A DNA stretch of 14,225 nucleotides, taken from the NCBI GenBank assembly GCA_036479435.1, contig JAZGFI010000124.1, forward strand, positions 1-14,225, in the 5' to 3' direction. The DNA is from Planctomycetota bacterium (GTDB lineage: Bacteria > Planctomycetota > GCA-002687715 > DRQF01). A model generated the notes under the pieces. That model saw nothing but the letters and a program-made list of their open reading frames with translations. It was not told where the DNA came from and searched no databases. Made by a program: the position numbers and the translations under genes. Numbering within the stretch: position 1 is the first letter of the stretch; every line of letters begins with the position of its first letter. Shown one piece after another: positions 1-14,225 of this stretch.

Positions 1-38
1 GCGAGCGTCTTCGGCTGGGCCATCTTGAAGGCCTTCAT
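1..38 (-). CDS. FAD-binding subunit of xanthine dehydrogenase-family molybdoenzyme (PaoB/YagS-like), N-terminal 12 codons only
   Basis: ATG at 38 overlaps the TGA of the Mo subunit (ATGA), with GGAG upstream. Reads MKAFKMAQPKTL, typical of the medium-subunit start. Runs off the window edge. Confidence 0.65.
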   Translation of the reverse strand, partial: MKAFKMAQPKTL

Positions 39-2335
39 TTCTTCTCCTTTTGGGCCAAGGCCTCAAGAACTTTTCTCGGGGTGATCGGGATCGAAGTGAC
101 GCGCACGCCGATCGCGTCGTAGACGGCGTTGGCGATCGCCGCGGCAGTCGCGATGACCGGGGGTTCTCCGAGGCCCATGACACTGGTGCTGTTGTAGCCG
201 TTGGCGACATCGACAAGTACGACGTCGATCTCGGGGCAATCGACCGGACCTGCGATCTTGTAGGTCTCCATGTTGTCGTTGAGCATGTGCCCGCCGACGG
301 AGTCCATGAGGCGGTTTTCAAAGAGCGCGTAGCTAACTCCCTGAATGACCCCGCCGCGGACTTGGCTGATCGAGGTCTTCTCGTTGATGATCTTGCCCGC
401 ATCGGCGATGGCGCAGACTTTGGTGACTTTGACTTCACCGGTTTCGGTGTCGACTTCCACCTCGGCAAATTGGGCTCCGGCGTTGGTGCCGCTGAAGCCG
501 GTGCGAGAGTTGCGGGGGCGCTTTGATGTCACGTCCACGAGGTCGTCCGTCATCAAGGCGCAGGCCTCTTTGAAGGTCATTTGTGCGACGTACTTGCTGC
601 CTTTTTTCTTCACCAGTTGACCGCCTTGGATATCGAGGTCATCGACTTTCCATTCCTTGGCTTCGGCGAGGATCTGCAAAAGCTCGACCTTGGCGTCGTG
701 AGCTGATTGTCGCGCGGCTGGCGTGAGGGTCGCAGCGGTGGTGGACCCGCCACTGGCGGGGCCGCGTGGGTCGCGCGTGTCGCCGATGAAGGTCTGGATG
801 TCCGACAGCTTCAACCCAAGCTCTTCGGCGACGACCATCCCGATGATAGTTCGGGTGCCGGTGCCAATATCCTGCGAACCGTTGCGCGCTTCGATCTGGC
901 CGTTCTTGTAGATGCGGATTTGGACTTGGGCGCCGCCCCCGCCGCGAGCAAACCACTCGCTACCGGCACAGCCAATGCCGCTTTTGACGCGACCCTTGTC
1001 AGAGCCAGCTTTGTTGCTGCGTTTTTTCTTCCAGTCAGTGCGCTGGGCACCCAGCTCAAACTCGTAGGGGCGAATCTTGTGGCCGTCGTTGCGCTGGCGG
1101 AACTCAATCGGGTCCATGCCGAGTTTTTCGGCCGCCATGTCCATCATTTGCTCAAGCGCGTAAACCCCTTGAGGAAATCCCGGAGCACGCATGGCGCGCA
1201 GAGCCCCGGTGTTCGTGCGTACGGCGTACTCGATCTTGTCGCGCTCACCGAGCTTGTACATGCCATCGTTGCGCGCGCCTGGCCCGTTACTGCCGCTGCC
1301 AGGAGTGCCCCAGACACGGGCCTGATAGCCGAGGATCGTGCCGTCTTTTTTGAGCGCCATGGTGATCTTTTGGATCGAATCCGGCCGGTTACCAACGGCG
1401 AGGTGTTCCTCGCTGCGGTTGAGCATCAGCTTGACCGGACGCTTTGTTTCACGGGCGAGCAAGCCGCCGGTGATGCCTTCGCGGCCCGCGGAGAACTTGG
1501 AACCAAAACCGCCGCCAACGTACTCGCAGAAGACGCGGATGTTGTCCATGTCGATGTGCTGATTGAGTTCGCGAGCCGTGTTGAAAGTGCCCTGCGTCGA
1601 GGCGTAGCAGATCATGTTGCCGCCGTTCCAATCACAGACGACGCCATGGGTCTCTAAGGAAGTGTGCGTTTGGCAGGGTGTGTCGAATTCGGCCTCGATG
1701 ACGTGGTCGGCTTCTTTTCGGGCCTGCTCAAAGCGTTCTTTACGGTCAGCCAACATCGCTTCGATGCGGGCAGCTCGATCCTGTTGAGACTCGCCTCGTT
1801 TGCCGCGCCCGGCGCGAACCTTTCGGAGGACGTTCTTTTGGTTATTGCGGCCGACCTTAGGTGCTCCGGGTTTCATCGCGTCAATCGTGTTCACCGCATG
1901 GGGCAAGAGCTCATACTCAACCTTGATGGCCTTGATGGCTTCTTCGGCGATGAACTCGGTGTCCGCGGCGACGGCGGCGATTTCACATCCGGCGAATCGA
2001 GCGGAAGAGGTGCGGAACTGCTTGGTGAGGTCTAAGGCCGCATGAACGCCCTTCATCTTGAGCGCAGGGCTGAGGTCGATCGATTTCACATCCGCATTGG
2101 GATGCGGGCTTCTCAAGATTCGACCGAAGAGCATCTTGGGCAGGTTGCGGTCGTAGGTGTACTTCGCCGCTCCGGTGACTTTGGCGATGCCGTCGACGCG
2201 GTCATCGCGACCGCCGACGACGCTGTACTCGCGATCGAGGTGGTAGGGAATCAGCTCACCGTCGCGCAGTTCCAGGGTGACCTCTTCGCGTTGGTCACCG
2301 AATCCGAGTTTGATTTTGATTTCTTGGCGGCTCAT
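35..2335 (-). CDS. Xanthine dehydrogenase-family molybdopterin-binding subunit (PaoC/YagR/CoxL-like), 766 aa
   Basis: Motifs KVTGAAKY, LRSPHPNA, GGGFGSK, MRAPG, QDIGTGTRT, SGGS, GGVIQG and GLGEPP. Start taken at ATG 2335 (ATGA overlap with the upstream gene, AAGGAG RBS), not 2518. Confidence 0.95.
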   Translation of the reverse strand: MSRQEIKIKLGFGDQREEVTLELRDGELIPYHLDREYSVVGGRDDRVDGIAKVTGAAKYTYDRNLPKMLFGRILRSPHPNADVKSIDLSPALKMKGVHAALDLTKQFRTSSARFAGCEIAAVAADTEFIAEEAIKAIKVEYELLPHAVNTIDAMKPGAPKVGRNNQKNVLRKVRAGRGKRGESQQDRAARIEAMLADRKERFEQARKEADHVIEAEFDTPCQTHTSLETHGVVCDWNGGNMICYASTQGTFNTARELNQHIDMDNIRVFCEYVGGGFGSKFSAGREGITGGLLARETKRPVKLMLNRSEEHLAVGNRPDSIQKITMALKKDGTILGYQARVWGTPGSGSNGPGARNDGMYKLGERDKIEYAVRTNTGALRAMRAPGFPQGVYALEQMMDMAAEKLGMDPIEFRQRNDGHKIRPYEFELGAQRTDWKKKRSNKAGSDKGRVKSGIGCAGSEWFARGGGGAQVQIRIYKNGQIEARNGSQDIGTGTRTIIGMVVAEELGLKLSDIQTFIGDTRDPRGPASGGSTTAATLTPAARQSAHDAKVELLQILAEAKEWKVDDLDIQGGQLVKKKGSKYVAQMTFKEACALMTDDLVDVTSKRPRNSRTGFSGTNAGAQFAEVEVDTETGEVKVTKVCAIADAGKIINEKTSISQVRGGVIQGVSYALFENRLMDSVGGHMLNDNMETYKIAGPVDCPEIDVVLVDVANGYNSTSVMGLGEPPVIATAAAIANAVYDAIGVRVTSIPITPRKVLEALAQKEKK

Positions 2336-2997
2336 TGTTTGCGCTCCTTCACCTGGCCGGTACTGGCAAGGGCAACGGCCTCGAAGATGTTTTCGTAGGT
2401 GCCGCAGCGGCAAATGTTGCCGGCGATGCCCTGGGCCACTTCGTCGCGCGTCGGCTTGGCGTTCTTGGCTAAAAGGGCGGTGCAGGACATGACCATGCCC
2501 GGCGTGCAGAATCCGCACTGAAGGGCATCACACTCCACAAAAGCGCTCTGCAAATCGCTGAGCTTGCCATCTTCGCCGACGAGACCTTCGACGGTGGTGA
2601 TGTCGTGGCCGGCGGCATCGACGGCCAGCGTGCAGCAAGCAGAGATCGTCTTACCGTCCATGAACACCGTGCAGGCCCCGCAAGCGCCGCGATCGCAAAC
2701 GCGTTTGGCGCCGGTGATGTCGAGGTCGTTGCGGAGGAAGTCGAGCAAGGTGGTGAAGGGGCTGGCCTTGGCGGTCGATTGTTTGCCGTTGACGGTCAAA
2801 GACAGAGGCGCTGGCCCGGGGCCGAGGATCTTCACCTCCTCAACGAGGCCCGGGGTCTTGGCGCCAGCGCTGGGGCTGACGACGCCCGCGGCGGCTACGG
2901 CAATACTCGCTCCCTTTAGGAATCCGCGCCGGCTCACGCCCTCGGTGGGCGGGCTGTCGTCGGCGGAGCCCGATCGGGGGTCCTGGGGTCGACTCAT
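2332..2997 (-). CDS. 2x[2Fe-2S] subunit with Tat signal (PaoA/YagT-like), 221 aa
   Basis: CDRGACGACTV...C, QCGFCTPG and GNICRCG motifs; SRRGFLK twin-arginine motif followed by a hydrophobic stretch. Start at ATG 2997 is a judgement. Confidence 0.95.
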   Translation of the reverse strand: MSRPQDPRSGSADDSPPTEGVSRRGFLKGASIAVAAAGVVSPSAGAKTPGLVEEVKILGPGPAPLSLTVNGKQSTAKASPFTTLLDFLRNDLDITGAKRVCDRGACGACTVFMDGKTISACCTLAVDAAGHDITTVEGLVGEDGKLSDLQSAFVECDALQCGFCTPGMVMSCTALLAKNAKPTRDEVAQGIAGNICRCGTYENIFEAVALASTGQVKERKQ

Positions 2998-3278
2998 GGT
3001 TTGCTTCTCGCGAATGGCATGATGGATGGAGCGCGCAAAAACCACGAAGTGGTTGAGCGCGGGGATCTAGGGGAATCATAGCAGACCCCTTTGCTCGTGG
3101 ATGCCCCGGGTTGACGTTTGACCGAGACAAAAGCGCCCAGGCCGCCATTCCTGTCTTCTCTAGTGGTACTCGATTGAAACCAGCTGGCGGAGTCAGCAAG
3201 ATCATATGGTGTCTTCGCGGTGCCCCGCAAACCGACCCCCAATCCGGACCACGCCCCTACCGAGACCGAGATTATCTC

Positions 3279-4931
3279 ATGGATTATGCCCAGCAGCTTG
3301 ACCAACTCCTTGGTCTGAAAGACCTTAGCTACCACTACAATCTGGAAAAGCGGGAGCTCTTTCAGGCTGCCATCGAAAATGACCGCGGCCGCGTCAAGGC
3401 TGGCGGCTCCTTCGATGAGCAAAAAGCCTTCGCGACCAAGCTCGGCGACCAAGGACCACTCGTCTATTACAGCGATCCGTCAGCGACCGGCCGCCGCGTA
3501 AAGGACACTTTCGCGGCCGACTATCCGGAGTTTGCGGACAAGGTCTGGTGGAAGAACGACTTTGGAAAGTACGATCACAAAGCCTATGAAGGCCTGTTGA
3601 AGCGTGTCGTCGCCTATCTGAACGAAAGAAAAGCCACGCTTTTCGTGCAGGACGTCTACGCCGGCTCCGATCCCGCCTACGCCTTGCCCTTCCGCTTCGT
3701 GGGCGAATACGCCACGCATGCTTTATTCGTGCAAACGATGTTTCCAAAGGGTGTGCAGGGCGTCGAGAACGCCGAGGCCAAGCGCTGGACCCTTTTGAAC
3801 GTGCCCAGCTTCCACACCGTCCCCGAACGTGACGGCAGTCGCTCAGAAGCGGCCATCATTGTCGACTTCAAGCGCCAGATCGCGCTGGTCTGCGGCCCGG
3901 CTGACTACTGTGGCACGAACAAAAAGACGATGTTCACCGTCTTGAACTACCTTTTGCCGGATCTCGGCTTCTTGCCGATGCACTGCTCGGCAAACGTGGG
4001 CGACAAAAATGACGCCGCGATCCTCTTCGGCTTGTCCGGAACGGGCAAAACGACCCTTTCGGCTGATCCTGAGCGCAAACTCATCGGAGACGATGAAATC
4101 GGTTGGACTGAAGGTGCCGTTTCCAACTTTGAAGACGGTTGCTACGCCAAGCTGATCGACCTCGACAAAAAAGCCGAGCCCGTGATCGCCGCGGCGCTTT
4201 CGATGCCCTGTACCCTCATCGAGAACGTCCCGCCCCTACCCGGCAAGGCCTTGGCGGACACCGATCCCCAAGAACTGGACCTCAGCGACAACAGCCTTAC
4301 CGAGAACACGCGCTTCGCCTACGGCCTCGACTGCAACCCCATGGTGATGGAAAACAGCCGCGGCCCGGCTCCGAAGACGATTGTTCTGCTGACGGCGGAC
4401 GCCTTTGGTGTCTTGCCTCCGGTGTCGATCCTCGACCCCGAAGACGTGATGTACCACTTCGTGTCGGGCTTCACCGCCAAGCTCGCCGGCACTGAAGTCG
4501 GCGTTACCGAGCCCAAAGCGGCCTTTAGCGCCTGTTTTGGCGCGCCCTTTATGGCGCGATTTCCGTCGGTTTACGCCGAGCTGCTGGCCAAGAAAATGGC
4601 CGATGCCAACGCGCGCTGTATCTTGCTGAACACCGGCTGGAGTGGCGGCGTCTACGGGGTTGGCAAGCGCATCTCCATCAAACACACCCGCGCTCTGCTG
4701 AATGCGGCGCTTCGCGGCGATCTCGACACCATCGAGACGGAGGTGCACCCCGTCTTCAACTTGAAGATGCCCAAAACCTGCCCCGATGTGCCCTCGGAGA
4801 TCTTGAATCCCCGCAACACCTGGGCCGACAAGGCGGCCTACGACGTGGAGGCCGAGAAGCTCCGGGAGATGTTCCAGGCGAACTTCAAAGCCAAGAACTT
4901 CGCCGAGCTGGGCATCAAAGCGGTCCTTTAG
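3279..4931 (+). CDS. pckA: Phosphoenolpyruvate carboxykinase (ATP), about 550 aa
   Basis: MHCSAN, P-loop GLSGTGKTTLS, LIGDDE, GCYAK, ENTR, LTADAFGVLPP, FSACFGAPF and LNTGWSGG. ATG 3279 gives the usual length. Confidence 0.96.
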   Translation: MDYAQQLDQLLGLKDLSYHYNLEKRELFQAAIENDRGRVKAGGSFDEQKAFATKLGDQGPLVYYSDPSATGRRVKDTFAADYPEFADKVWWKNDFGKYDHKAYEGLLKRVVAYLNERKATLFVQDVYAGSDPAYALPFRFVGEYATHALFVQTMFPKGVQGVENAEAKRWTLLNVPSFHTVPERDGSRSEAAIIVDFKRQIALVCGPADYCGTNKKTMFTVLNYLLPDLGFLPMHCSANVGDKNDAAILFGLSGTGKTTLSADPERKLIGDDEIGWTEGAVSNFEDGCYAKLIDLDKKAEPVIAAALSMPCTLIENVPPLPGKALADTDPQELDLSDNSLTENTRFAYGLDCNPMVMENSRGPAPKTIVLLTADAFGVLPPVSILDPEDVMYHFVSGFTAKLAGTEVGVTEPKAAFSACFGAPFMARFPSVYAELLAKKMADANARCILLNTGWSGGVYGVGKRISIKHTRALLNAALRGDLDTIETEVHPVFNLKMPKTCPDVPSEILNPRNTWADKAAYDVEAEKLREMFQANFKAKNFAELGIKAVL

Positions 4932-4965
4932 CCGGTTGATTCGGGGCCAAGAAGGCCTCAAACGC

Positions 4966-4995
4966 GCCTTCAGTCCCGGTTTTCGGGCTGAAGGC
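4966..4995. terminator. Hairpin downstream of pckA (possible terminator or stabiliser, no U-tract)
   Basis: GCCTTCAG(T)CCCG-GTTTT-CGGGCTGAAGGC, 12 bp with one bulge. Confidence 0.45.
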
Positions 4996-5026
4996 AGCAA
5001 ATTCGCTCCGCCAAAGAAACAGGGCC

Positions 5027-5054
5027 TTGATCGGACCCCGGCGGCGCTTAAAAT
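5027..5054 (+). promoter_or_regulatory. Putative sigma70 promoter of tRNA-Asp
   Basis: TTGATC-16 nt-TAAAAT, ending 14 nt before the tRNA. Confidence 0.55.
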
Positions 5055-5068
5055 CCCGACGCAATACT

Positions 5069-5142
5069 GGCCCAGTGGCGCAATTGGTTAGCGCACCGCC
5101 CTGTCACGGCGGGGGTTGTGGGTTCGAGTCCCATCTGGGTCG
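5069..5142 (+). tRNA. tRNA-Asp (GTC), CCA not encoded
   Basis: Acceptor GGCCCAG/CTGGGTC plus discriminator G; D arm GCGC/GCGC; anticodon arm CCGCC-CTGTCAC-GGCGG; T arm GTGGG-TTCGAGT-CCCAT. Confidence 0.97.
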
Positions 5143-5149
5143 CTGCAAT

Positions 5150-5237
5150 AACACACACGGTGCATCGCACCGTGTGTGTTTTTCATCAATCAAAAGCACG
5201 GTGTATCCCGCACCGTGCTTTTGTTTTCATCAATCAA
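5150..5237 (+). terminator. Two tandem related intrinsic terminators after the tRNA
   Basis: AACACACACGGTGC-ATC-GCACCGTGTGTGTT-TTT and CAAAAGCACGGTGT-ATCCC-GCACCGTGCTTTTG-TTTT, each followed by CATCAATCAA. Confidence 0.85.
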
Positions 5238-5284
5238 GATACCCGCAAGCTTTGCGACCTTTGAAGGTTGCCCCTTCCGGGCCT

Positions 5285-5458
5285 TCACCAGATGACCACG
5301 TATTGGCCATCGTCTTGCGCCGCCAAGGCGCGCATCAAACCGCCGGGGCCTCCGGTGCCGATCGCGATGGTGTGGATCTGAGTCTTTTTGAGTTCGTTCA
5401 TCTTCTGTACTTCGGCCAAGATGTTCGCCGAGGCGAAAGCCTCGGCCTCTACTTTCAT
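5285..5458 (-). pseudogene. C-terminal fragment of a VWA-domain-like protein (57 codons)
   Basis: Reads MKVEAEAFASANILAEVQKMNELKKTQIHTIAIGTGGPGGLMRALAAQDDGQYVVIW*, matching the IHTIAIG...LM..LA...GG.Y end of VWA domains. An out-of-frame IIIISD segment lies just upstream (about 5500-5520). Not in the ORF track. Confidence 0.55.
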
Positions 5459-5541
5459 CGATGCGGGGTGGCATCGACTTCTCCTAAACGCTCACTTTCT
5501 CATCGGAGATAATGATGATCGCGAAGCGGTGGATCATGAGA

Positions 5542-5569
5542 TTGACATCTAAGGGGCTACGAGTAGGGT
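5542..5569 (+). promoter_or_regulatory. Putative sigma70 promoter for the 5646-9133 gene run
   Basis: Perfect TTGACA, 16 nt spacer, TAGGGT (TAnnnT). Confidence 0.45.
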
Positions 5570-5645
5570 CGAAAGCTGAGTTGCGGACAAAGGTCGAGTG
5601 GCCATAGTTCACAAGACAAACGCCGTGCGGAGTCAGGAGATTAGA

Positions 5646-6599
5646 GTGGATCGTCGACGATTCTTGGAGTTGGCCGGAGTGCTTCCCCTTGCGGCAGCCG
5701 CGGCGAGTTGCACTCGGTATGAAGAGAGCTCAGGTCGGCGGGCCCCGACGAGTGGGCCGACGGGAGGTGACCTTGCCGAATCCGGTCCGCTCTATCAGGT
5801 TTCCTTGGCCGAGTGGTCGGTTAACCGATCTGTGCAGGCCAAAAAACTCGATCACCTCGATTTTCCCAAGTACGCCCGCAGCGTTGGCATCGACGCTGTG
5901 GAGTACGTCAGCACCTTGTTTGCAGATGGCAAGTGCGATGCCAAGTACGTCGCAGCATTGAAATCTCGCTGCGAGGGTGAAGGCGTTCAGAGTTTGCTGA
6001 TCATGGTCGATGGCGAGGGCAACCTCGGCGCCGCCGAGCCCGCCGCCCGGGCCCAAGCCGTCGCCAATCACCACCGCTGGGTTGAGGCCGCCGCCGATCT
6101 GGGCTGTCACGCGATTCGCGTGAATGCTCGGAGTAGCGGTAGCTACGACGAACAGGCTGACCGTGCTGCAGATGGCCTGCGACAGCTTTGCGACTACGGC
6201 GATCGCTTCGGCATCGACGTCATCGTCGAAAACCACGGCGGACTGTCCTCTGACGGCGCGTGGTTGGCCGCCGTCATGCGAAAGACCGATCATCCCCGCG
6301 TCGGCACGCTGCCGGATTTCGGCAATTTTTCGATCTCGAAAACCGAGGTCTACGATCGCTATAAGGGGGTCGAAGAGCTGATGCCCTTCGCGAAGGCGGT
6401 GAGCGGCAAAAGCTACGCTTTTGATGCTAAGGGTCGTGAAACTAAAATTGACTACGCACGCATGATGAAGATCGTTGTCGACGCCGGCTATCGCGGCTAC
6501 GTCGGCATCGAGTTCGAAGGGGCAGGCGCTGCGCGCGAAGGAATCCTCGCGACCAAGGCCTTGCTCGAATCCGTGCGCGCCGATCTAGCCAAGAACTAA
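5646..6599 (+). CDS. Sugar phosphate isomerase/epimerase (AP endonuclease 2 TIM barrel), probable Tat lipoprotein, 317 aa
   Basis: VENHGGLSS, GTLPDFGNF and YVGIEFEG motifs. GTG 5646 follows AGGAG. N-terminus DRRRFL...AAAASC is a twin-Arg motif plus lipobox. Confidence 0.9.
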   Translation: MDRRRFLELAGVLPLAAAAASCTRYEESSGRRAPTSGPTGGDLAESGPLYQVSLAEWSVNRSVQAKKLDHLDFPKYARSVGIDAVEYVSTLFADGKCDAKYVAALKSRCEGEGVQSLLIMVDGEGNLGAAEPAARAQAVANHHRWVEAAADLGCHAIRVNARSSGSYDEQADRAADGLRQLCDYGDRFGIDVIVENHGGLSSDGAWLAAVMRKTDHPRVGTLPDFGNFSISKTEVYDRYKGVEELMPFAKAVSGKSYAFDAKGRETKIDYARMMKIVVDAGYRGYVGIEFEGAGAAREGILATKALLESVRADLAKN

Positions 6600-6613
6600 G
6601 GGTAAAAGACCAA

Positions 6614-7123
6614 GTGAGCGAATCTCAGGACTTTTCGGACGGCAATCCCCAAGCGGTGGAAATCGACCCCGAACTGCTGCGGCGCGCAGCCCGCAACCAT
6701 GTCAGCACGCCGGCCATTGGGATGATCTTCACCGGCGCGTTGAGTATTTTCGTGATGGTCTGCTTTTCCATTGTCGTCACCACAAATCCCGATGGCTACG
6801 TCGATTTTGTGCAAGGGCTCGGCTGGGCTAACCCCGATGAGGTTGATTTAGAGGAAGAGGCGCTCATGAAAGAGCGCCTTAGGGAAGCTGTATCCGATGG
6901 CCCTCGCTTGTGGACCCTCGCCATATCGATCATCGGTAGCCTCATCGCGATCGCCGGCGGAATTTGCATGAAACGGCTGAAAGCCCGCAAATTCGCGATT
7001 TGCGCCGGAATTGTGGCCATGATCCCGGTTTTTGTGCCCTGTTGTATCGGAATCGTATTCGGCGGGTGGGCCATTATGGTCTTGTTGCGCGACGACGTCG
7101 CCAGCGTCTTCGAGAACGGATAG
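6614..7123 (+). CDS. Membrane protein of unknown function with PCC motif, 169 aa
   Basis: Hydrophobic segments; C-terminus AMIPVFVPCCIGIVFGGWAIMVL; paralogous to the next gene. Confidence 0.8.
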   Translation: MSESQDFSDGNPQAVEIDPELLRRAARNHVSTPAIGMIFTGALSIFVMVCFSIVVTTNPDGYVDFVQGLGWANPDEVDLEEEALMKERLREAVSDGPRLWTLAISIIGSLIAIAGGICMKRLKARKFAICAGIVAMIPVFVPCCIGIVFGGWAIMVLLRDDVASVFENG

Positions 7124-7168
7124 ACTGCGTCGAATAGGAAATACCGCGACATCGAAGGAGTCGAATTC

Positions 7169-7651
7169 ATGGAAGAGCAGAACGGCGTCGATCGCCAAGC
7201 GGCGATGAGCCGATTGAAGGGCCCCGCTATCGGACTATTGGTGGTGGGTGCGCTCGGCGCGCTCTTGAGCGTCGGGAGCATTCTTGGCATCGGGGGCGCT
7301 AGCACCACGGCGATAATGAAACCCTTTGCGGACATGATCGAAAACCAAGCCGACGAAGCCGCCACCCCGGAAGAAGCGGAGCAACTTCGCGAGCAAGCGG
7401 AACAGATGCGCAACCCTGTGGGATCTACGGGTTCGAGTATCTTCTCCGGCCTTCTTAGCCTCGCGATCTGTGGCTTGGTGATTTTTGGCGCGATGAAGAT
7501 GATGAAAGCCGAGAGTTTTGGCCTTTCGATGGCGGGAGCCATTCTCGCCATGATTCCCTGTCTGAGTCCTTGTTGTTGTCTCGGCATACCGCTTGGTATT
7601 TGGGCCCTGATGGTCATGAACAAAGCCGAAGTCAAAGAAGCCTTCGCCTAA
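7169..7651 (+). CDS. Membrane protein of unknown function with PCCC motif, 160 aa
   Basis: AAGGAG RBS; GPAIGLL N-terminal helix; AMIPCLSPCCCLGIPLGIWALMVM...VKEAF. Confidence 0.85.
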   Translation: MEEQNGVDRQAAMSRLKGPAIGLLVVGALGALLSVGSILGIGGASTTAIMKPFADMIENQADEAATPEEAEQLREQAEQMRNPVGSTGSSIFSGLLSLAICGLVIFGAMKMMKAESFGLSMAGAILAMIPCLSPCCCLGIPLGIWALMVMNKAEVKEAFA

Positions 7652-7655
7652 ACTC

Positions 7656-8410
7656 ATGCATCAAACCACCGTCGCTCGAAAGGCCTTGCTCAAAGCAACT
7701 CTTTTGATGCTGTGCCTCTGTGGTGGTCGTGCCTTGAAAGCCCCTCTCTGGATCGATCTTTGATCCTGGGCGAGGGCTTTCATCGTTACCGTTGGCAGCC
7801 AGACTTTTTCCGACTTCCCGAAAAGACAACTTGGGGCAAAGAGCTAAAGGCTGGTTTGCACGGTATGACTTTGGTGCGAGAAGGGGAACCGGAGTCCTCT
7901 ACCTCACCCACACCATTCGCGGCGAAGTCCTAAAGACGACGCTCGACGGCAAAGTGCTGTGGCGACTTGGGACGCCGAAGTTGCCCAAGATCTATGCGAA
8001 GAAAAACGAGTATCACCCGACGAGCGTCGCGGTCGCGTCCAGTGCTGAGTTCTTCGTCGCCGACGGCTACGGCAAGAGCGTCATCTTGCACTACTCGAAG
8101 GATCGAAAACTCTTGGGCACCTTCGGGGGATGGGGCGGTAAGCCCGGTCAGATGCGCGTGCCCCACGGGCTCTACATCGATCGCTACGCGGGCAAAGAGG
8201 AGCTGCTGGTCGCCGATCGAGAAAATACCGTTTGCAGCGCTTCAGTCTCAAGGGGGTGTGGCTCGATCAACTGAAAGGGCCCTTTCGAAGGCCCTGCAGC
8301 GTCCATGGTCACGGAGACTATTTGGTCGTGGCCGACCTGGCGGGGCGCGTGACCTTGTTGGATCGCGTCTCGAACGGGTCCACGTTGGGCCGGGCAAGAA
8401 CCACAAGTAG
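7656..8410 (+). pseudogene. Frameshifted, truncated secreted NHL-repeat (beta-propeller) protein
   Basis: Four successive frames give a signal-like MHQTTVARKALLKATLLMLCLCG, then LGEGFHRYRW...WGKELKAGLHGM, then LYLTH...PTSVAV...VADGYG...PHGL...VADREN, then LQRFSL...RRPC...DLAGRVTLLD. The end coordinate is approximate. Confidence 0.8.
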
Positions 8411-8416
8411 GGCAGC

Positions 8417-9133
8417 ATGGTCGACAAAAACGAGATTGAGATCGTGCGTGGGGACCTGGGTGTCTTCGCTTGCTTCGGCGAGTCGACACGACTCTTGTCA
8501 AAAGGCCCGGCGATCTGGGGCTTCGCGCTCGTGTGTTTCACCTACATCGCCGCGGCGTCGACCGTGCCCTTCGCTAGTCTCGCAGCCGGTGTGTTCATGG
8601 GCGGTATTCACCTCGGATTTACGCGGCTTATGGATGGCCGAAAAGTAGAAGCCGCCACGGGCTTTGAGGGCTTTTCTCATTTCGGTCAACTGCTGTTGGC
8701 GAACTTGATTCAGGCTGGGATCGCATTTGTCGTCGTGATGCCTTTTTACTGCCTCTTCACCACGTTGTTTGTCGTGGCAGTGGATTCGCTCCAAGGCCCG
8801 CAGGGAGCCGCGATCTCGGTGACCTTTTTAATGGGAATTCTCGTTGCGGGGATTTTGGCCCTACTCGTCCAGGTCTTCACCGTCTTCAACTATGTCTTAG
8901 TCGTAGATCGCGGCCTGAGTGCTTGGGGCGCCACCGTCGTTAGCTTTCGTGGCGTCAAAAAGAACCTTGTTTCCGTGATCTTGCTCGAACTCGCCTGCGG
9001 GCTGGTGTTGGTCGTTGCGACCTTGCTGTGCTGTTTGCCGCTGTTCGTCGCGATGCCCTGGGTCATTGGGGCGCAAACTGCGGCTTACGCGACGATCTTT
9101 CCTCGGGAAGGGCTCGCCGAGGTGTTTGATTAA
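8417..9133 (+). CDS. Multi-pass membrane protein of unknown function with LLCC motif, 238 aa
   Basis: About five hydrophobic helices; LVVDRGLSAWGA..VSF and LLCCLPLFVAMPW motifs; followed by a terminator. Confidence 0.85.
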   Translation: MVDKNEIEIVRGDLGVFACFGESTRLLSKGPAIWGFALVCFTYIAAASTVPFASLAAGVFMGGIHLGFTRLMDGRKVEAATGFEGFSHFGQLLLANLIQAGIAFVVVMPFYCLFTTLFVVAVDSLQGPQGAAISVTFLMGILVAGILALLVQVFTVFNYVLVVDRGLSAWGATVVSFRGVKKNLVSVILLELACGLVLVVATLLCCLPLFVAMPWVIGAQTAAYATIFPREGLAEVFD

Positions 9134-9161
9134 GCCAGGCTTCGGTGGCGGCAGCGTGACG

Positions 9162-9192
9162 AAAAAGGCGCGCCCTGTGGGCGCGCCTTTTT
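9162..9192. terminator. Bidirectional intrinsic terminator between convergent genes
   Basis: AAAAAGGCGCGCCC-TGT-GGGCGCGCCTTTTT. Confidence 0.9.
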
Positions 9193-9214
9193 GATTCACC
9201 GATGAGCTGACTTT

Positions 9215-9278
9215 GCTTAGAAGTCGAATTTCACTTCATGCCCTTCGCTTAGAAGTCGAATCGGACTTCATGTCCATT
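9215..9278. repeat. Imperfect 32-bp tandem duplication of the FG-GAP gene 3' end
   Basis: gcttagaagtcgaatttcacttcatgcccttc / gcttagaagtcgaatcggacttcatgtccatt, 26 of 32 identical. Confidence 0.85.
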
Positions 9279-10808
9279 CGACGCCGCATAGCTACCATTG
9301 TTGGCGATGGGCGTGAAGACGAGGGCTTGCGACATGAAGCGCATGCCGCCAATTGAGGCGGGTGTTGTGAAGAAGAAGGGATTGCCAGCGGCGGCGAGCG
9401 GCAGGTTCAAGATCACCAAGGGTCCTGATCCAAACTGATTCAGGTGCAGTCCCGGCAAGGCGCCCGGGGGCGAGAAGCCGGGGAAAAACAGCTGGAAGAC
9501 CAACAGCGCTTGGATGCCGTTAAAGGTCCCCATCGGCGAGATCATTCGAGTTTCGACGATTTCGCCGATCTGTGGTTTGTAGATGTGAGCGGCCTGCGGA
9601 ATGACTGGTGGGGTGTTGAGGCCCGTGCCGATGGCGAGGTCGTCGCCGGTACCCGGGTAAGGGGCGGCTGGCAGGTTGTTGGTGAACACCGACAAGACTG
9701 AGCCGCTAAAAGACAAGCAAGCCAAGTCGTCGTGGCAATCGCCAGTGAAGTCACCCGAGGTGACGTGGAAGGGGTTCGCCCCGACGAAACTAACGATCTG
9801 GTCGCTGAAGGCGCCTTGGCCGTTATTCGTCAAGACGCGCAGGTTGAAGGCGTCGAAAGTGACTACGGCGAGGTCGGTACCCAGCGTGTTGTCGACGTTG
9901 GTCGCGACGATATCGACCGGCGTGACATCCGTCGGATAGTCTTGGCGATTGAAGTTGAAGCTCCCCGTGTTCCTAAGGACCGAGATGTCGGACGAACCGA
10001 CGTTGCAAGTCGCGATGTCAATGGTGCCGTCGTTGTCGAGATCCGCGAGGACTAGCGAAAAAGGTGCGGCTCCGGTCGCGATGAAGTTGCCGGGGACCAA
10101 GGCGGTGCCGGTGTTCTCGAACAACAAGACCGCACTCGCGCCACTGGCGGTCAGGACGAGGTCATCATCTCCATCGCCGTCGAGGTCGCCGTAAGCACCG
10201 TCAGAGCAGCCTGGAATCCCGAAAATACTTCCCGCAAAAGCGAGCGTACCGCCAATGTTCGCGAGAAGAGAAGTGGCGCCGATGCTGATGTTGCACACGA
10301 CGATGTCGATGTCACCATCGCCATCCGCGTCACCGGGGATAATGCGGAAAGGGTCTGTGCCACCGGAGACGATGACGGGAGCTTGAAAACTACCGGTCCC
10401 GGTGTTGACCAGGACGTAGATTTGCGCCGAGAGGTTGCAGCAGACGACGAGGTCGTCCAGGCCGTCCCCAGAAATATCCGCGGCGACGATGTCAGTCGGA
10501 CCTGAGCCCACAATGCCGAAGCCGTTTGGGGTGAAGGTTCCCGTGCCGTCGTTGAAGAAATACTCAACTCGGTTGATGGATGAAAAGCAAATGGCCAGAT
10601 CCAGGTCGCCATCGGCGTCCAGATCTAGCTTCGCCGTCGCCGTTGGCGTGGCGCCGATACCCACCGGCGTCTTCGCCTGGTAACTGGCTTGCCCCTCGGC
10701 GTGAGAAGGATTCATGAGCAAGGCGATGGCGAGTAAAAGCGACGTCGTCAAGACGGACCTGGTGGCGGTCTTCGTCGCGATCTTCGTGTACTGATTGTCT
10801 TTAGTCAT
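9249..10808 (-). CDS. Secreted FG-GAP/VCBS-repeat protein with extra C-terminal domain, about 519 aa
   Basis: Seven DxDxDGxxD-like repeats (DLDADGDLD, DISGDGLDD, DADGDGDID, DLDGDGDDD, DLDNDGTID, NVDNTLGTD, DFTGDCHDD). A signal peptide follows ATG 10808. Confidence 0.9.
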   Translation of the reverse strand: MTKDNQYTKIATKTATRSVLTTSLLLAIALLMNPSHAEGQASYQAKTPVGIGATPTATAKLDLDADGDLDLAICFSSINRVEYFFNDGTGTFTPNGFGIVGSGPTDIVAADISGDGLDDLVVCCNLSAQIYVLVNTGTGSFQAPVIVSGGTDPFRIIPGDADGDGDIDIVVCNISIGATSLLANIGGTLAFAGSIFGIPGCSDGAYGDLDGDGDDDLVLTASGASAVLLFENTGTALVPGNFIATGAAPFSLVLADLDNDGTIDIATCNVGSSDISVLRNTGSFNFNRQDYPTDVTPVDIVATNVDNTLGTDLAVVTFDAFNLRVLTNNGQGAFSDQIVSFVGANPFHVTSGDFTGDCHDDLACLSFSGSVLSVFTNNLPAAPYPGTGDDLAIGTGLNTPPVIPQAAHIYKPQIGEIVETRMISPMGTFNGIQALLVFQLFFPGFSPPGALPGLHLNQFGSGPLVILNLPLAAAGNPFFFTTPASIGGMRFMSQALVFTPIANNGSYAASNGHEVRFDF

Positions 10809-11037
10809 TGCGGTCTCTCGTTCCAGCCGAACTCTCAGAATAGAGCAGCTGTCTCGTGGTGATTGGCGCATCTCCATGGCATCCCCACGCTTGGCACGAT
10901 CGGCACTTTCGATGGCGGGGAGCGTATTTAGCCTACGCTTAGTTGTTGTAGCGTACCCCCCCCTTTCTACCCAACCAGCTCTAGAATCCACCACCCTAAA
11001 TTCAGTGCGGGTTTTCAGCCAAACGGCCCGCAGGGAC

Positions 11038-11074
11038 AAAAAAAAACGCGGTCGCCGAGATCCCCGGCGACCGC
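11038..11074 (-). terminator. Intrinsic terminator of the candidate selenoprotein gene
   Basis: Minus strand GCGGTCGCCG-7 nt-CGGCGACCGC then G and T9, starting 26 nt after the TAA at 11101. Confidence 0.9.
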
Positions 11075-11100
11075 TGTCTTTCTTGCGAACTGGGCTAGAC

Positions 11101-11919
11101 TTAGGCCTGTCTCTTTTTCACCGTCGTCTTTTTGAAGGACTTCAACTTGAAGCCCCGGTGCTTCGCAATGAGGGCTTCGGCCGTCTTTTTAGACAAGGCC
11201 TGGTCCTTTTTGGCGAGGATCTTGACGCTAGAGGTGTCGCCAAAGGGCATGACGACGATGACGTCTTTGACACTGGTGAAGATCTCACGGATCTTCGCGC
11301 AAGTGTCGCCTCAGCCAACGCCGTCAACGACCAGTTTGTAAACAACGGCAGGTTTGGGCTGGGTGACTTTCTCGAGGGTGCTAATCGATGAGCGTAGGGG
11401 TTTCAGCGCGGCGCTAATGGCCTCGCGGCTGGGCTTTTTATCGTCAGTAGTCTTCATCCAAGCGGTGGCCGTCGAATCGACGACGACTGTCTTCATTCCT
11501 TTGACTTTTTCCAAGGCCGCACGGACCTTGTTGGCTTTCATGGCAGCGCCTCAGCCACCGCCTCGGGTGTAGACCATCTTCCAATAGGTCACCTTGTCGG
11601 CACCCTTGCCCTTGGGCTCTTGGAATGACACGAGCTCGAAGTTTGATTTGGTCAGCGCGGCCGAAACCACCTGGCGGTCGAGGCTATAGCCGTTCTTCAT
11701 GGTGATCCAGGCCTTGGCCTGGGCGCAGTCGACTTTGACTTGGCTGACGCCCTTCACCGATTTGAGAGCCGCACGGGCCTCATCGTGAAAGTTTCAGGCT
11801 AGGCCTTTCAGCGTGACAACGTAGACCTTGCCGCCGTCCAAGGACGGGGATGCTGTAAAGGCACTTCCAAGGCCCAGGGCGCCAAAGAGCGCCACCAGCC
11901 CGAATGCGAGAATTCGCAT
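11101..11919 (-). CDS. Candidate selenoprotein: signal peptide plus three HMA/MerP-like domains, Sec at codons 42, 123 and 203; 272 aa
   Basis: GAGG RBS and ATG 11919; one frame to TAA 11101, broken only by TGA at 11794-11796, 11551-11553 and 11311-11313. Contexts are VYVVTLKGLA-U-NFHDEARAALKSVKGV, YWKMVYTRGGG-U-GAAMKANKVRAALEKVKGM and VYKLVVDGVG-U-GDTCAKIREIFTSVKDV. Confidence 0.85.
11278..11296 (-). promoter_or_regulatory. Putative bacterial SECIS for UGA 203
   Basis: GAAGAUC-CGUGA-GAUCUUC, perfect 7-bp stem; loop begins 21 nt after the UGA. Confidence 0.75.
11512..11530 (-). promoter_or_regulatory. Putative bacterial SECIS for UGA 123
   Basis: CAAGGUC-CGUGC-GGCCUUG, 7-bp stem with one U-G pair; loop begins 27 nt after the UGA. 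Confidence 0.75.
11763..11782 (-). promoter_or_regulatory. Putative bacterial SECIS for UGA 42
   Basis: UGAGGCC-CGUGC-GGC(U)CUCA, 7 bp with one bulge; loop begins 18 nt after the UGA. Confidence 0.7.
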
Positions 11920-12227
11920 CTCAATTCCTCTCAGAGATTTGATTGAGGTTGGGGCTCCCTGCCCGCTCACCTGTCCCCTGATAACACCGTGATTGCCGAA
12001 GTGCTTCCATCTGATTCGAGAGATTTACTGCCATGGGCTGCTTGGCCCAAATACCCTAATAGATTTGTCCTAATTGGTTTACGGCAAAAGGACTCTCGTG
12101 AAAAAATCAAGAATTTTCGAAAGATGACAGGCGATTCCGTCTATGGAGCTTCTGGCCCCTGATCGCCGTTCTCGGGATGGCCCTCTGTGCGCTGCCGTTT
12201 TTTGCGAAACGACCGTGAGGGATTCTT

Positions 12228-13685
12228 ATGGCTGCCATTTATTGCCGTATTGCAGATTCCGAATCAAAATCATGGGTTAGTGGGGGATCGACAAGTGCGT
12301 CCGCCACGAGTCTTGCCACGACGACCTTCAATGACATTGGCGCTGAGCGCCGCGTCCTGAATCGGGCCGCCTTTGGACCTAATGCTGGCAACTTGGCTCA
12401 CATCCAGTCCATCGGCTGGCAGGCTTGGCTCGAAGAGCAGCTCGATTTTTCTTCGATTGACGATCGGACGAATGAAGAGGTGGTTGAAGCCGCCAATTTC
12501 AACGCTAAAGACGTAACGCGACTAGATCGTGCCTATCTGCAACGCTGCCTCGCGTCTCAGAACCAACTGCTGATGAAAATGACGGCCTTTTGGGAACGGC
12601 ATTTCAACACAGATCGTCGTAAGGCTCAGAACGACAATGAGATCTTTGAGCAGGAACGTTTTCGCAAGCTGGCATTTGGACGCTTCGAAGATCTGCTCAT
12701 CGGCAGTGCCACCAGCCCGGCGATGATTCGTTATCTCGACAACGCAAGCAATGTCGCCAGCGCTCCGAATGAGCACTACGCCCGCGAGGTTCTTGAGCTC
12801 CACACTTTGGGCATTGACGGTCCCTACACTGAAACAGATGTCGCCGAGCTGGCTCGCGTCTTTACTGGCTGGCGGGTGCTCAACAATCCGGGCCCGGGGC
12901 TTTACCGGCCCCAGATATTCAACTTTCGAATCGCCGCCCACGACCCTGGTCCCAAGTCGGTGATGACCTGGACCACATCCGGATTCAGCAACGAAGAGGG
13001 CGTCAACGAAGGCCTGACTTTTCTGCGCTACTTGGCGCGCCACCCCAAGACGATTGACTTCATCTCGAGAAAACTGTGCGCGTCGTTTCTTGAAGCCACT
13101 CCTCAAGAGTCCGAAATCGATCGGGTCAAAAGAACTCTGTCGAAACCAGGCGCGACGATCGCCGATGCTGTGCGCGTCCTTTTCGAGATCATCGCCAACA
13201 ACCCGCGCTACGGTCGCAGCAAGAGTCTCAGCAACTTCGAGTTTGTGATTTCGATGCACCGTCGCTTGGGGCTGACCACGGCCAACCTCAACCGTATGGC
13301 CAACGAACTCGAAAACATGGGCAGCCCCTTGTGCGAGTTTCCAGCACCGACCGGGCTCCCCGACGCCGGTCCCCGTTTCGAGGCCCCCGGTGTCTTGATC
13401 GAGCGCTGGAACTTCGTGCACGATCTTGCCCGCAATTCGATCAGCAACTCGACGGTTGATTACGCGACTCTGTTGGGATCACCCGCGCCCGCGACGGTGC
13501 TGGCTCTCATTACTCACGCCGCGGATCTTCTGCTCGACGGCGACCTCGATAGTAAGTCACGAGACCAACTGCAAGTCTGGGCTAGGAAGCGTGTCGGCTC
13601 GACGCCCACGCAAGGCCAAATCGACGGCTTGGCGCCCGACCTTTTTAGCATCTTGTTGCGTTTGCCCGCAGCTCAACTCAACTAA
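12228..13685 (+). CDS. DUF1800-family protein (true N-terminus uncertain, possibly disrupted)
   Basis: RRVLNRAAFGP, WLEEQL, MTAFWERHF, SPAMIRYLDN, PNEHYAREVLELHTLG, YTETDVAELARVFTGW and HDPGPK. Confidence 0.88.
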   Translation: MAAIYCRIADSESKSWVSGGSTSASATSLATTTFNDIGAERRVLNRAAFGPNAGNLAHIQSIGWQAWLEEQLDFSSIDDRTNEEVVEAANFNAKDVTRLDRAYLQRCLASQNQLLMKMTAFWERHFNTDRRKAQNDNEIFEQERFRKLAFGRFEDLLIGSATSPAMIRYLDNASNVASAPNEHYAREVLELHTLGIDGPYTETDVAELARVFTGWRVLNNPGPGLYRPQIFNFRIAAHDPGPKSVMTWTTSGFSNEEGVNEGLTFLRYLARHPKTIDFISRKLCASFLEATPQESEIDRVKRTLSKPGATIADAVRVLFEIIANNPRYGRSKSLSNFEFVISMHRRLGLTTANLNRMANELENMGSPLCEFPAPTGLPDAGPRFEAPGVLIERWNFVHDLARNSISNSTVDYATLLGSPAPATVLALITHAADLLLDGDLDSKSRDQLQVWARKRVGSTPTQGQIDGLAPDLFSILLRLPAAQLN

Positions 13686-13771
13686 CAAGGGGCTCCACTA
13701 AGTCGATCACAGGCCGCTCGAAGCTCACTGCGTGGGACCGTCGCGTTTTTGAGATCAAGCGCCTGACGCAG

Positions 13772-14201
13772 ATGACGACCTCGCCGAGCAACGCTTTGGT
13801 GCGGGCCCTCAAAGTGGGCGATTCCTCGCTGCGGGACGCGCTCGTCGGCAGCTGCCAGGCGCATGCGGCCCGGACGGTCTCCGACTATGATATCGATCTC
13901 ACCAACGCTGACATGCTTTGTCTCATGCGGGGACTCATCGACCGTTCGTCGGCGACAGGTCCGACCGCCGTCGCGGCCAAAAACCGCCTCAGCGCCGGCA
14001 GCCGCGGTGTCTTTGACCTCGTCGAGCACTTCGCGGGTTTGGATTTGGCAACTTACGTCCCGTTCGTTCCCTATCCCAACGGCGTCCTCGGTAATCATCT
14101 GTAGACGGCGGTTGATACCTGCGCGTAGATGGCGCTTTGCGCGTATGACCGCCGCGTTTATGGTCCACGTTAACTGGGCACCGAATTATCAATTGGCGTA
14201 G
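13772..14201 (+). pseudogene. Probable degraded DUF1501-family remnant
   Basis: Lies directly after DUF1800, the usual DUF1501 position. FDLVEHFAGLDLATYVP...YPNGVLGNHL*TAVD resembles the DUF1501 central YPxxxLGxxL segment. No N-terminal half; stop at 14102-14104. Limits approximate. Confidence 0.4.
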
Positions 14202-14225
14202 AGGTAGAGGTGCGGATGAGATCGA

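Follow-up and report, generated by a model that had tools for sequence, protein, structure and literature searches.

Probable SECIS hairpins downstream of three in-frame UGA codons in a planctomycete gene for an HMA-like protein

RESULTS

A gene with three in-frame TGA codons and three hairpins

The DNA examined here, referred to as the window, is a stretch of 14,225 nucleotides (nt) from a Planctomycetota bacterium (GenBank assembly GCA_036479435.1, contig JAZGFI010000124.1, positions 1 to 14,225). On its minus strand lies a gene whose reading frame passes through three TGA codons, and each TGA is followed within the coding sequence by a small hairpin (Table 1). We consider it very likely that these hairpins are bacterial selenocysteine insertion sequence (SECIS) elements, one per UGA, within the codons for a secreted protein that contains three HMA-like domains. 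When TGA is translated as selenocysteine (Sec, U), the gene product has 272 amino acids, with Sec at codons 42, 123, and 203, and a GAGG is present 7 nt upstream of the ATG. The protein is laid out as a signal-peptide-like N terminus followed by three HMA-like (beta-alpha-beta-beta-alpha-beta) domains, with a Sec in the metal-binding loop of each. The loop motifs of domains 1 to 3 are GLAU-NFH, GGGU-GAA, and GVGU-GDTC.

Table 1. Positions of the candidate selenoprotein gene, its UGA codons, and the associated hairpins in the window
Feature	Position	Strand	Details
Candidate selenoprotein gene	11101..11919	minus	819 nt; ATG at 11919, TAA at 11103-11101; TGA read through
UGA 1 (Sec42)	11794..11796	minus	aligns with Sec at profile position 12 in homologues
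UGA 2 (Sec123)	11551..11553	minus	from translation and codon listing
UGA 3 (Sec203)	11311..11313	minus	from translation and codon listing
Putative SECIS 1	11763..11782	minus	UGAGGCC/CGUGC/GGCUCUCA; loop 11775-11771 = Arg49 CGU; loop starts 18 nt after UGA
Putative SECIS 2	11512..11530	minus	CAAGGUC/CGUGC/GGCCUUG; loop 11523-11519 = Arg133 CGU; loop starts 27 nt after UGA
Putative SECIS 3	11278..11296	minus	GAAGAUC/CGUGA/GAUCUUC; loop 11289-11285 = Arg211 CGU; loop starts 21 nt after UGA
Intrinsic-terminator-like hairpin	11048..11074	minus	12-bp stem with 10 GC pairs, then nine T; 27 nt after TAA

An initial annotation, made from the sequence letters, had reported the three hairpins with these loops and spacings, each loop closed by a C-G pair, and folding reproduced all three. 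Its description of the stems as 7 bp that all pair held for hairpin 2 (seven contiguous pairs, one of them G-U) and hairpin 3 (a perfect, contiguous 7 bp), but the 7 bp of hairpin 1 are split into 4 + 3 pairs around one bulged U on the 3' arm. It had also stated that, among the 10 Arg codons in the gene, CGT is found solely at the three loop sites (codons 49, 133, and 211), and this was exact. Genome-wide, CGT accounts for 14.5% of Arg codons (2057 long open reading frames [ORFs]).

Next, we compared the hairpins with the published bacterial SECIS (bSECIS) model. As given in the accessible part of PMC13188914, that model has a loop of 3 to 9 nt with a G within the first two positions and then G or U, a stem of 4 to 16 bp, a spacing of 16 to 37 nt, and a minimum free energy (MFE) of -7.5 or lower. 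All three hairpins fall within these limits, with 5-nt loops, 7-bp stems, G and U at loop positions 2 and 3, the spacings in Table 1, and MFEs of -8.5, -9.4, and -8.1 kcal/mol for hairpins 1, 2, and 3 in folds of 25 to 26 nt (z scores of -1.70, -2.26, and -2.67). Each is also located inside the coding region, immediately 3' of its in-frame UGA, and at the aligned position homologues have Sec or Cys. In a control of random in-frame positions drawn from long ORFs of the same genome, a hairpin of at least 6 bp with a 5-nt NGUNN loop 10 to 45 nt downstream followed 216 of 20,000 positions (1.08%), compared with three of three TGAs here. Hairpin 3 has in addition a lower stem of 6 bp (GACACU/AGUGUC), with the structure spanning 11269-11307 (39 nt; -17.3 kcal/mol and a z score of -4.44 for the 41-nt extended form). 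We rejected this lower stem as a family feature because it is missing from the consensus of 18 orthologous sites.

The genome (5.47 Mb in 299 contigs, 58% GC, 92% complete) encodes the machinery for Sec insertion, namely, tRNA-Sec, selA, selB (323 bits, over the cut-off), and selD, which has one in-frame TGA of its own.

Hairpins are conserved and covary in Sec-containing homologues

Among 61 related genomes, the protein matched 24 (this genome counted in), including 8 of 8 for both families nearest to this genome and 0 of 5 in a third family of the same order. In-frame TGA codons, one to three each, were present in 29 of the 33 matched stretches. For the alignment, 55 TGA sites were taken from 26 loci, and 5 sites upstream of domains were dropped to give 50 domain sites from 25 loci. 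Left out beforehand were L031, which is the same place as L024, and L027, L028, and L035, for which the BLAST match was weak, partial, or lacking. The homologue at L027 (G047:C158) has two adjacent TGA codons (U-U-G-K) and then a 7-bp hairpin with a GGUCC loop.

A CGUGN loop was found at the same Arg codon in 44 of the 50 Sec sites. The full tally was CGUGA at 22 sites, CGUGC at 16, CGUGG, CGUGU, and CGGCG at 3 each, and GGUUC, AGUUC, and CGGGA at 1 each, so that the G at loop position 2 is invariant. The loop Arg itself is present in at least 90% of 45 aligned domains. The tolerance of variable spacing suggested in the initial annotation was borne out in the homologues. Counted from the T of the TGA, the loop starts most often at 24 nt (19 sites), followed by 30 nt (15 sites), 27 nt (10 sites), and 21 nt (6 sites), which correspond to spacing classes of 18, 21, 24, and 27 nt after the TGA.

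We then examined whether the stems covary, using a gapless 25-nt alignment (A1) with 336 stem cells, 500 shuffles, and controls in which the partner was slid by one to three columns. Pairing was observed in 93.5% of the stem cells, compared with 76.5 ± 1.4% in shuffles (none of the 500 as high) and 33 to 49% in the slid controls. Changes on both sides were seen in six of the seven stem pairs, with 64 compensatory cells versus 22.3 in shuffles and a covariation score of 0.586 versus 0.263; the check across homologues that had been proposed thus came out in favor of a conserved stem. Several of the compensatory changes are nonsynonymous (Val/Thr, Ile/Ile, and Ala/Ala). When 18 sites of the 24-nt class were aligned from the TGA, RNAalifold predicted only the hairpin with 7 bp and a 5-nt loop, with 0 of 126 cells broken and compensatory changes in five of seven pairs. 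Since the relatedness of the sequences inflates the shuffle figures, more weight falls on the controls with slid partners and on the Cys control described below.

The hairpin is visible in codon choice and in paired residues

The hairpins are encoded within the codons of helix alpha-1. The loop takes in the Arg CGU codon together with bases 1 and 2 of codon +1. Codons -2 and -1, counted from the Arg, supply one arm of the stem, and the other arm comprises the third base of codon +1, all of codon +2, and two bases from codon +3. We tallied codons at 48 distinct sites against the usage of this genome. The Arg codon was CGT in 43 of 46 cases (0.14 in the genome). Codon -1 ended in C at 47 of 48 sites (GTC for 27 of 28 Val, GCC for 13 of 13 Ala, and ATC for 7 of 7 Ile), and codon +1 ended in G at 46 of 48, with Ala at that position encoded by GCG in 15 of 15 cases (0.32 in the genome).

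The constraint extends to the amino acids. Across 51 rows of close Sec homologues, residues -1 and +2 were Val/Thr in 19, Ala/Ala in 14, Val/Ala in 7 (a G-U pair), Ile/Ile in 5, Val/Ile in 3 (also G-U), Ile/Met in 2, and Ile/Thr in 1. Every one of these combinations encodes a base pair except at the lone Ile/Thr site. More distant forms also have Thr/Val. In residues -1 and +2, which covary, the constraint imposed by the RNA can be read from the protein sequence.

Cys-containing homologues lack the hairpin

A phylum-wide search with a profile of 45 homologous domains (A2) matched 180 of 301 genomes. From it, a Cys set was formed of the best 20 no-stop domains covering the site among the matches listed, and a distant Sec set was formed of 20 loci with further TGA forms. 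In these 20 additional loci of the phylum, another 24 domains have a TGA at the same position of the metal loop, and all 20 no-stop domains, again among the matches listed, have Cys at the Sec position. The hairpin was then scored in the three groups (Table 2).

Table 2. Hairpin features at distinct sites of Sec-encoding and Cys-encoding homologous domains
Group	Distinct sites	At least 6/7 pairs	At least 5 contiguous pairs	GU loop	Arg = CGT
Sec, close relatives	49	45	39	46	44/48
Sec, phylum-wide	22	11	11	9	11/16
Cys	20	5	1	0	0/6

The initial annotation had named equal conservation of the hairpins in Cys-encoding homologues as a result that would speak against it, and the outcome was otherwise, with a GU loop in 0 of 20 Cys sites and a contiguous stem in 1 of 20. 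Its assignment of the hairpins as SECIS elements, giving support for Sec decoding that is independent of the protein alignment, holds at the level of sequence comparison, in that the stems covary in TGA homologues and are absent from Cys homologues. One Cys homologue (L038; G145:C114), with a C-x4-C motif, retains all 7 bp of the stem at the place of the SECIS, with the loop CAAGA; this may be the relic of a SECIS after replacement of Sec by Cys.

These comparisons bear on the alternative that the hairpins simply follow from the protein sequence, in that the repeated helix motif x-V/I/A-R-E/A-T/I/A-L is self-complementary when encoded and the RNA has no function. In keeping with that view, the loop lies on a near-invariant Arg, the three domains are homologous repeats, and 5 of 20 Cys forms reach at least 6/7 pairs by chance. 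However, Cys homologues of the same fold do not have the hairpin, and where they have Arg at the loop site, it is encoded by CGC or AGG, never CGT. Third codon positions in the Sec forms are fixed far beyond genome codon usage, and residue pairs incapable of base pairing (Val/Leu, Ile/Asp, Leu/Lys, and others) are seen among the Cys forms but in none of the close Sec forms. A distant Sec homologue, L062, moreover builds a CGUGC loop from other codons in another register. We therefore regard a by-product of protein sequence as highly improbable.

In L062 (G102:C40), the CGUGC loop after the Sec codon is made from the codons GCC-GTG-CGC, a register unlike the Arg-CGU of the family, a hint of selection acting on the sequence of the loop as such. 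Two-Sec HMA forms (U-x3-U or U-x2-U) are found at five other loci of the phylum (L058, L059, L064, L065, and L066), and these are without the CGUG hairpin. In four of them (L059, L064, L065, and L066), a hairpin that fits CC-N-GCC/UGGA(A/U)/GGCGUGG lies at a distance of about 46 nt from the first UGA, and none was seen by eye in L058. This hairpin may serve the second or both UGAs.

Fold of the protein and integrity of the gene

Profile searches and a structure model were used to place the protein. The whole protein scored 19.3 bits against the Pfam HMA model PF00403, below the gathering threshold of 24.8, and the NCBIfam MerP, CopZ, and UxxU models gave weak matches, all under cut-off. Profile A2 matched solved HMA domains in the PDB at an E value of 3.8e-32, with entries 1osd, 1afi, 6ff2, and 2kt2 among the matches. 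An AlphaFold2 (AF2) model of domain 3, with a predicted local distance difference test score (pLDDT) of 95.8, has strands at residues 2-6, 29-35, and 40-45 and helices at 13-24 and 53-61. In this model, Sec is residue 12, at the end of loop 1, and the loop Arg is residue 20, inside helix 13-24. This beta-alpha-beta-beta-alpha order, taken with the profile match, agrees with an HMA fold whose metal ligand lies in loop 1 or where helix 1 begins. HMMER printed a single alignment, to an ATP7B HMA domain, and there the loop Arg stands opposite Glu.

No scanned NCBIfam or Pfam model covers this exported multi-Sec HMA-like family above its cut-off. Searches of the literature on bacterial HMA and Planctomycetota selenoproteins did not bring up the family, nor did the accessible part of PMC13188914, a 2026 review. 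A pattern search of the genome's contigs with the full protein gave 81 pattern matches, of which none was confirmed. Three further HMA-like candidate genes are present in the genome, on C96, C109, and C146, and the domains of the paralogue on C96 pass PF00403 at 38.7 bits.

A different explanation is that the TGAs are true stops or lesions, making the locus a pseudogene or three small genes for which the hairpins are irrelevant. Gene callers using table 11 would indeed split the locus, and ORFs of 58 to 76 amino acids lie between the TGAs. Against this, TGA recurs at the same metal-loop position in 50 domains from 25 loci and in the 24 domains from 20 more, the listed no-stop domains have Cys there, and the Sec machinery is complete. 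On the structure model, fragments starting after TGA 2 and TGA 3 would miss the first strand and the metal loop of the fold. There is also a single terminator, placed after the TAA. The open frame through three TGAs to the TAA, together with this strong terminator, indicates an intact gene and in that way supports the SECIS reading. We regard true stops or lesions as highly improbable.

The terminator-like hairpin sits between the candidate selenoprotein gene and an FG-GAP repeat protein gene just downstream. The first possible start of the latter, TTG at 11039, is inside the T run of the terminator, and its real start is therefore probably further downstream. The other neighbors encode a xanthine-dehydrogenase-type molybdoenzyme, phosphoenolpyruvate carboxykinase (PEPCK), a TIM-barrel protein, and a DUF1800 protein. 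The closest relatives of the PEPCK gene come from Planctomycetota MAGs, at 64 to 69% identity, which makes it probable that the genome belongs to this phylum. None of the neighboring genes suggests what the candidate selenoprotein does.

Loops of other selenoprotein genes in the same genome

To place the CGUG loop among the Sec sites of this organism, we scanned the genome for in-frame TGAs flanked on either side by sequence with coding potential. This gave 797 candidates, of which a hairpin-blind filter left 196. Hairpins with an NGUNN loop followed 30 of the 797 candidates (3.8%), compared with 1.08% of control positions. Thirty chosen candidates were scanned with NCBIfam and 11 of these with Pfam; SelD came from the selD family search. 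The QueG gene on C147 was rejected as a Sec candidate since its TGA is upstream of the family match, and the candidates on C6 and C56 were rejected as adjacent genes in the same frame.

Outside the HMA family, 16 Sec sites had family support, and the loop frequencies among them are biased, as the picks were partly guided by the NGU filter. CGUG was found at five sites (ResA-like on C141 and C279, PrxQ-like on C185, DUF3179 on C262, and DsbD-like on C271). GGUC(U) was found at six, as GGUCU in SelD, FdhA, and the AhpD-like gene on C201 and as GGUC in the AhpD-like gene on C62, a DF-family gene on C249, and a ResA-like gene on C263. GGUU(C) was present at two (C96+ and the second site of C274), and AGUUU was present at two (ArsC-like on C70 and the VPGUxxT gene on C274). 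At the remaining site, the W-U-T-P-C site of a ResA-like gene on C181, enumeration yielded no good hairpin (best, -2.0 kcal/mol).

The initial annotation had proposed C-[CGUG(C/A)]-G as a lineage-specific SECIS consensus, and this was not supported as worded, given the loops of SelD, FdhA, and the AhpD-like, ArsC-like, and VPGU genes of the same genome. It had also named selenoprotein genes without the motif as a point against itself, and on this the result is divided, with the motif at 5 of the 16 sites and another loop or none at the rest. Likewise, mining the genome with the CGUG pattern was productive in part. There were 159 CGUGN hairpins with at least 6 bp, 25 of them had an open-frame TGA 12 to 42 nt upstream, and 8 of these 25 are credible Sec sites, but SelD and FdhA were missed. 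The SECIS signature of this organism is N-G-U in a small loop, that is, the published bSECIS model as far as the accessible parts of PMC13188914 and PMC4605307 describe it. CGUG is one flavor of that loop, anchored to a family and a codon and also found in some unrelated genes.

It might still be that C-G-closed CGUGN forms a distinct SECIS class, preferred by the SelB of this lineage beyond the general NGU loop. The five family-supported non-HMA genes with CGUG after the Sec codon are consistent with this, as is L062, which forms an identical loop from different codons. Core selenoprotein genes of the genome, however, carry GGUCU, GGUC, AGUUU, and GGUU(C) loops, and one SelB must serve them all. 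We consider a separate class unlikely, while a mild preference is possible in light of the five genes outside the HMA family.

The genome looks rich in selenoproteins, with about 20 candidate Sec sites. The candidates include SelD, FdhA, two AhpD-like proteins, an ArsC-like protein, a two-Sec VPGUxxT protein, PrxQ-like, DUF3179, and DsbD-like proteins, and several ResA/TlpA-like thioredoxins. In addition, two FG-GAP repeat proteins, on C295 (6577-7875) and C220 (660-1862) (L089 and L096), have an in-frame TGA in a W-U-C motif, and each TGA precedes a GU-loop hairpin (AGUUU on C295 and GGU on C220). These proteins had no matches among the selenoprotein models scanned and may represent an uncatalogued selenoprotein family.

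DISCUSSION

Several observations weigh against our conclusion that the three hairpins are SECIS elements. Windows of 61 nt around sites 1, 2, and 3 were unremarkable, with z scores of -1.27, +0.07, and -2.45; because those at sites 1 and 2 are not significant, the case rests on the comparative data. The energies of the bare stems are -5.0, -7.8, and -6.6 kcal/mol for hairpins 1 to 3, and hairpin 1 is borderline, since it reaches the -7.5 threshold only with dangling ends counted. An Rfam scan of positions 11000 to 12000 (E of at most 10) placed no family on the hairpins. Many of the 50 sites are orthologues with stems common by descent. The stems of two sites, L007 site 531 and L008 site 342, are imperfect, so that their anchors were placed manually at the Arg codon. 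Finally, distant Sec sites keep at least 6/7 pairs in only 11 of 22 cases and a GU loop at the anchor in 9 of 22. Those without the anchored hairpin mostly have another one nearby, with loop GGUC, GGGU, GGUUC, or CGUGC(U), as judged by eye only.

Recognition of the E. coli fdhF SECIS by SelB involves G23 and U24 of the RNA. By analogy with E. coli and Moorella, SelB carrying GTP and Sec-tRNA(Sec) would bind the apical part of each hairpin just outside the mRNA entrance as the ribosome reaches the UGA. The contacts would be made by the C-terminal winged-helix domains (WHDs) of SelB with the G and U at loop positions 2 and 3, and Sec would be delivered at the UGA in place of termination. In the accessible part of PMC4605307, WHD3/4 bind the SECIS near the mRNA entrance, and the hinge of WHD2-3 takes up differences in spacing.

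Taking the evidence jointly, we tentatively suggest, as a possibility rather than the expected outcome, that the SECIS hairpin is a built-in dual-coding module of the HMA-like domain, with helix alpha-1 shaped by the RNA and with SelB perhaps favoring C-[CGUGN]-G. Under such an arrangement, Arg would be fixed at the loop by CGU, residues -1 and +2 would covary to maintain pairing, and the module would be copied with each domain duplication. A preference of SelB would fit the presence of this loop in genes unrelated to the family and, in a single case, in a different codon register. If true, a dual-coding module would explain how two or three Sec per protein arose and how the arrangement spread across Planctomycetota.

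For annotation, the hairpins speak for one three-Sec protein where standard annotation would give four pieces. They provide RNA-level, independent support for what appears to be a widespread exported HMA-like selenoprotein family. That family is a clean case of an in-ORF RNA signal constraining a protein through covarying residues, which could be useful for teaching and for the design of recombinant selenoproteins. For mining, CGUG alone is insufficient in this genome, and the general N-G-U model combined with coding evidence is what recovers the set of candidate Sec sites.

The protein can be compared with known HMA systems. MerP and CopZ (PF00403) share this fold and place the metal ligand where the first loop ends and helix 1 begins. 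Here, in contrast, Sec takes the place of the first Cys, the second ligand either is missing or is displaced by one residue, and an Arg stands at the position of the ATP7B Glu. The NF041115 family (UxxU_metal_bind) and the UxxC HMA domain of Sec-containing cation-transporting ATPases, as described in the accessible part of PMC13188914, likewise have an HMA-type fold with Sec in the metal loop. The window protein differs from them in its three tandem domains, its signal-peptide-like N terminus, and motifs that are U-only, U-only, and U-x3-C, with neither UxxU nor UxxC. Its score of 19.2 bits against the curated NF041115 cut-off of 95 places it outside that family.

The hairpins can likewise be set beside known SECIS elements. 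The E. coli fdhF SECIS, as far as the accessible text of PMC4605307 describes it, has a stem of 6 to 8 bp and, some 20 nt past the UGA, a conserved G in its loop, and the present hairpins are alike in both respects. They differ in having CGUGN loops, whereas the FdhA and SelD genes of this same genome use GGUCU, and in having no conserved bulged U in the upper stem, a bulge being present only in hairpin 1. Relative to the bSECIS model in the accessible part of PMC13188914, the present hairpins are alike in the UGA, the in-ORF stem-loop, the loop, the stem, the spacing, and the MFE, with no structural difference. What sets them apart is that the loop is fixed on the Arg CGU codon of a protein helix, that there are three per gene, and that they are kept across the domain family.

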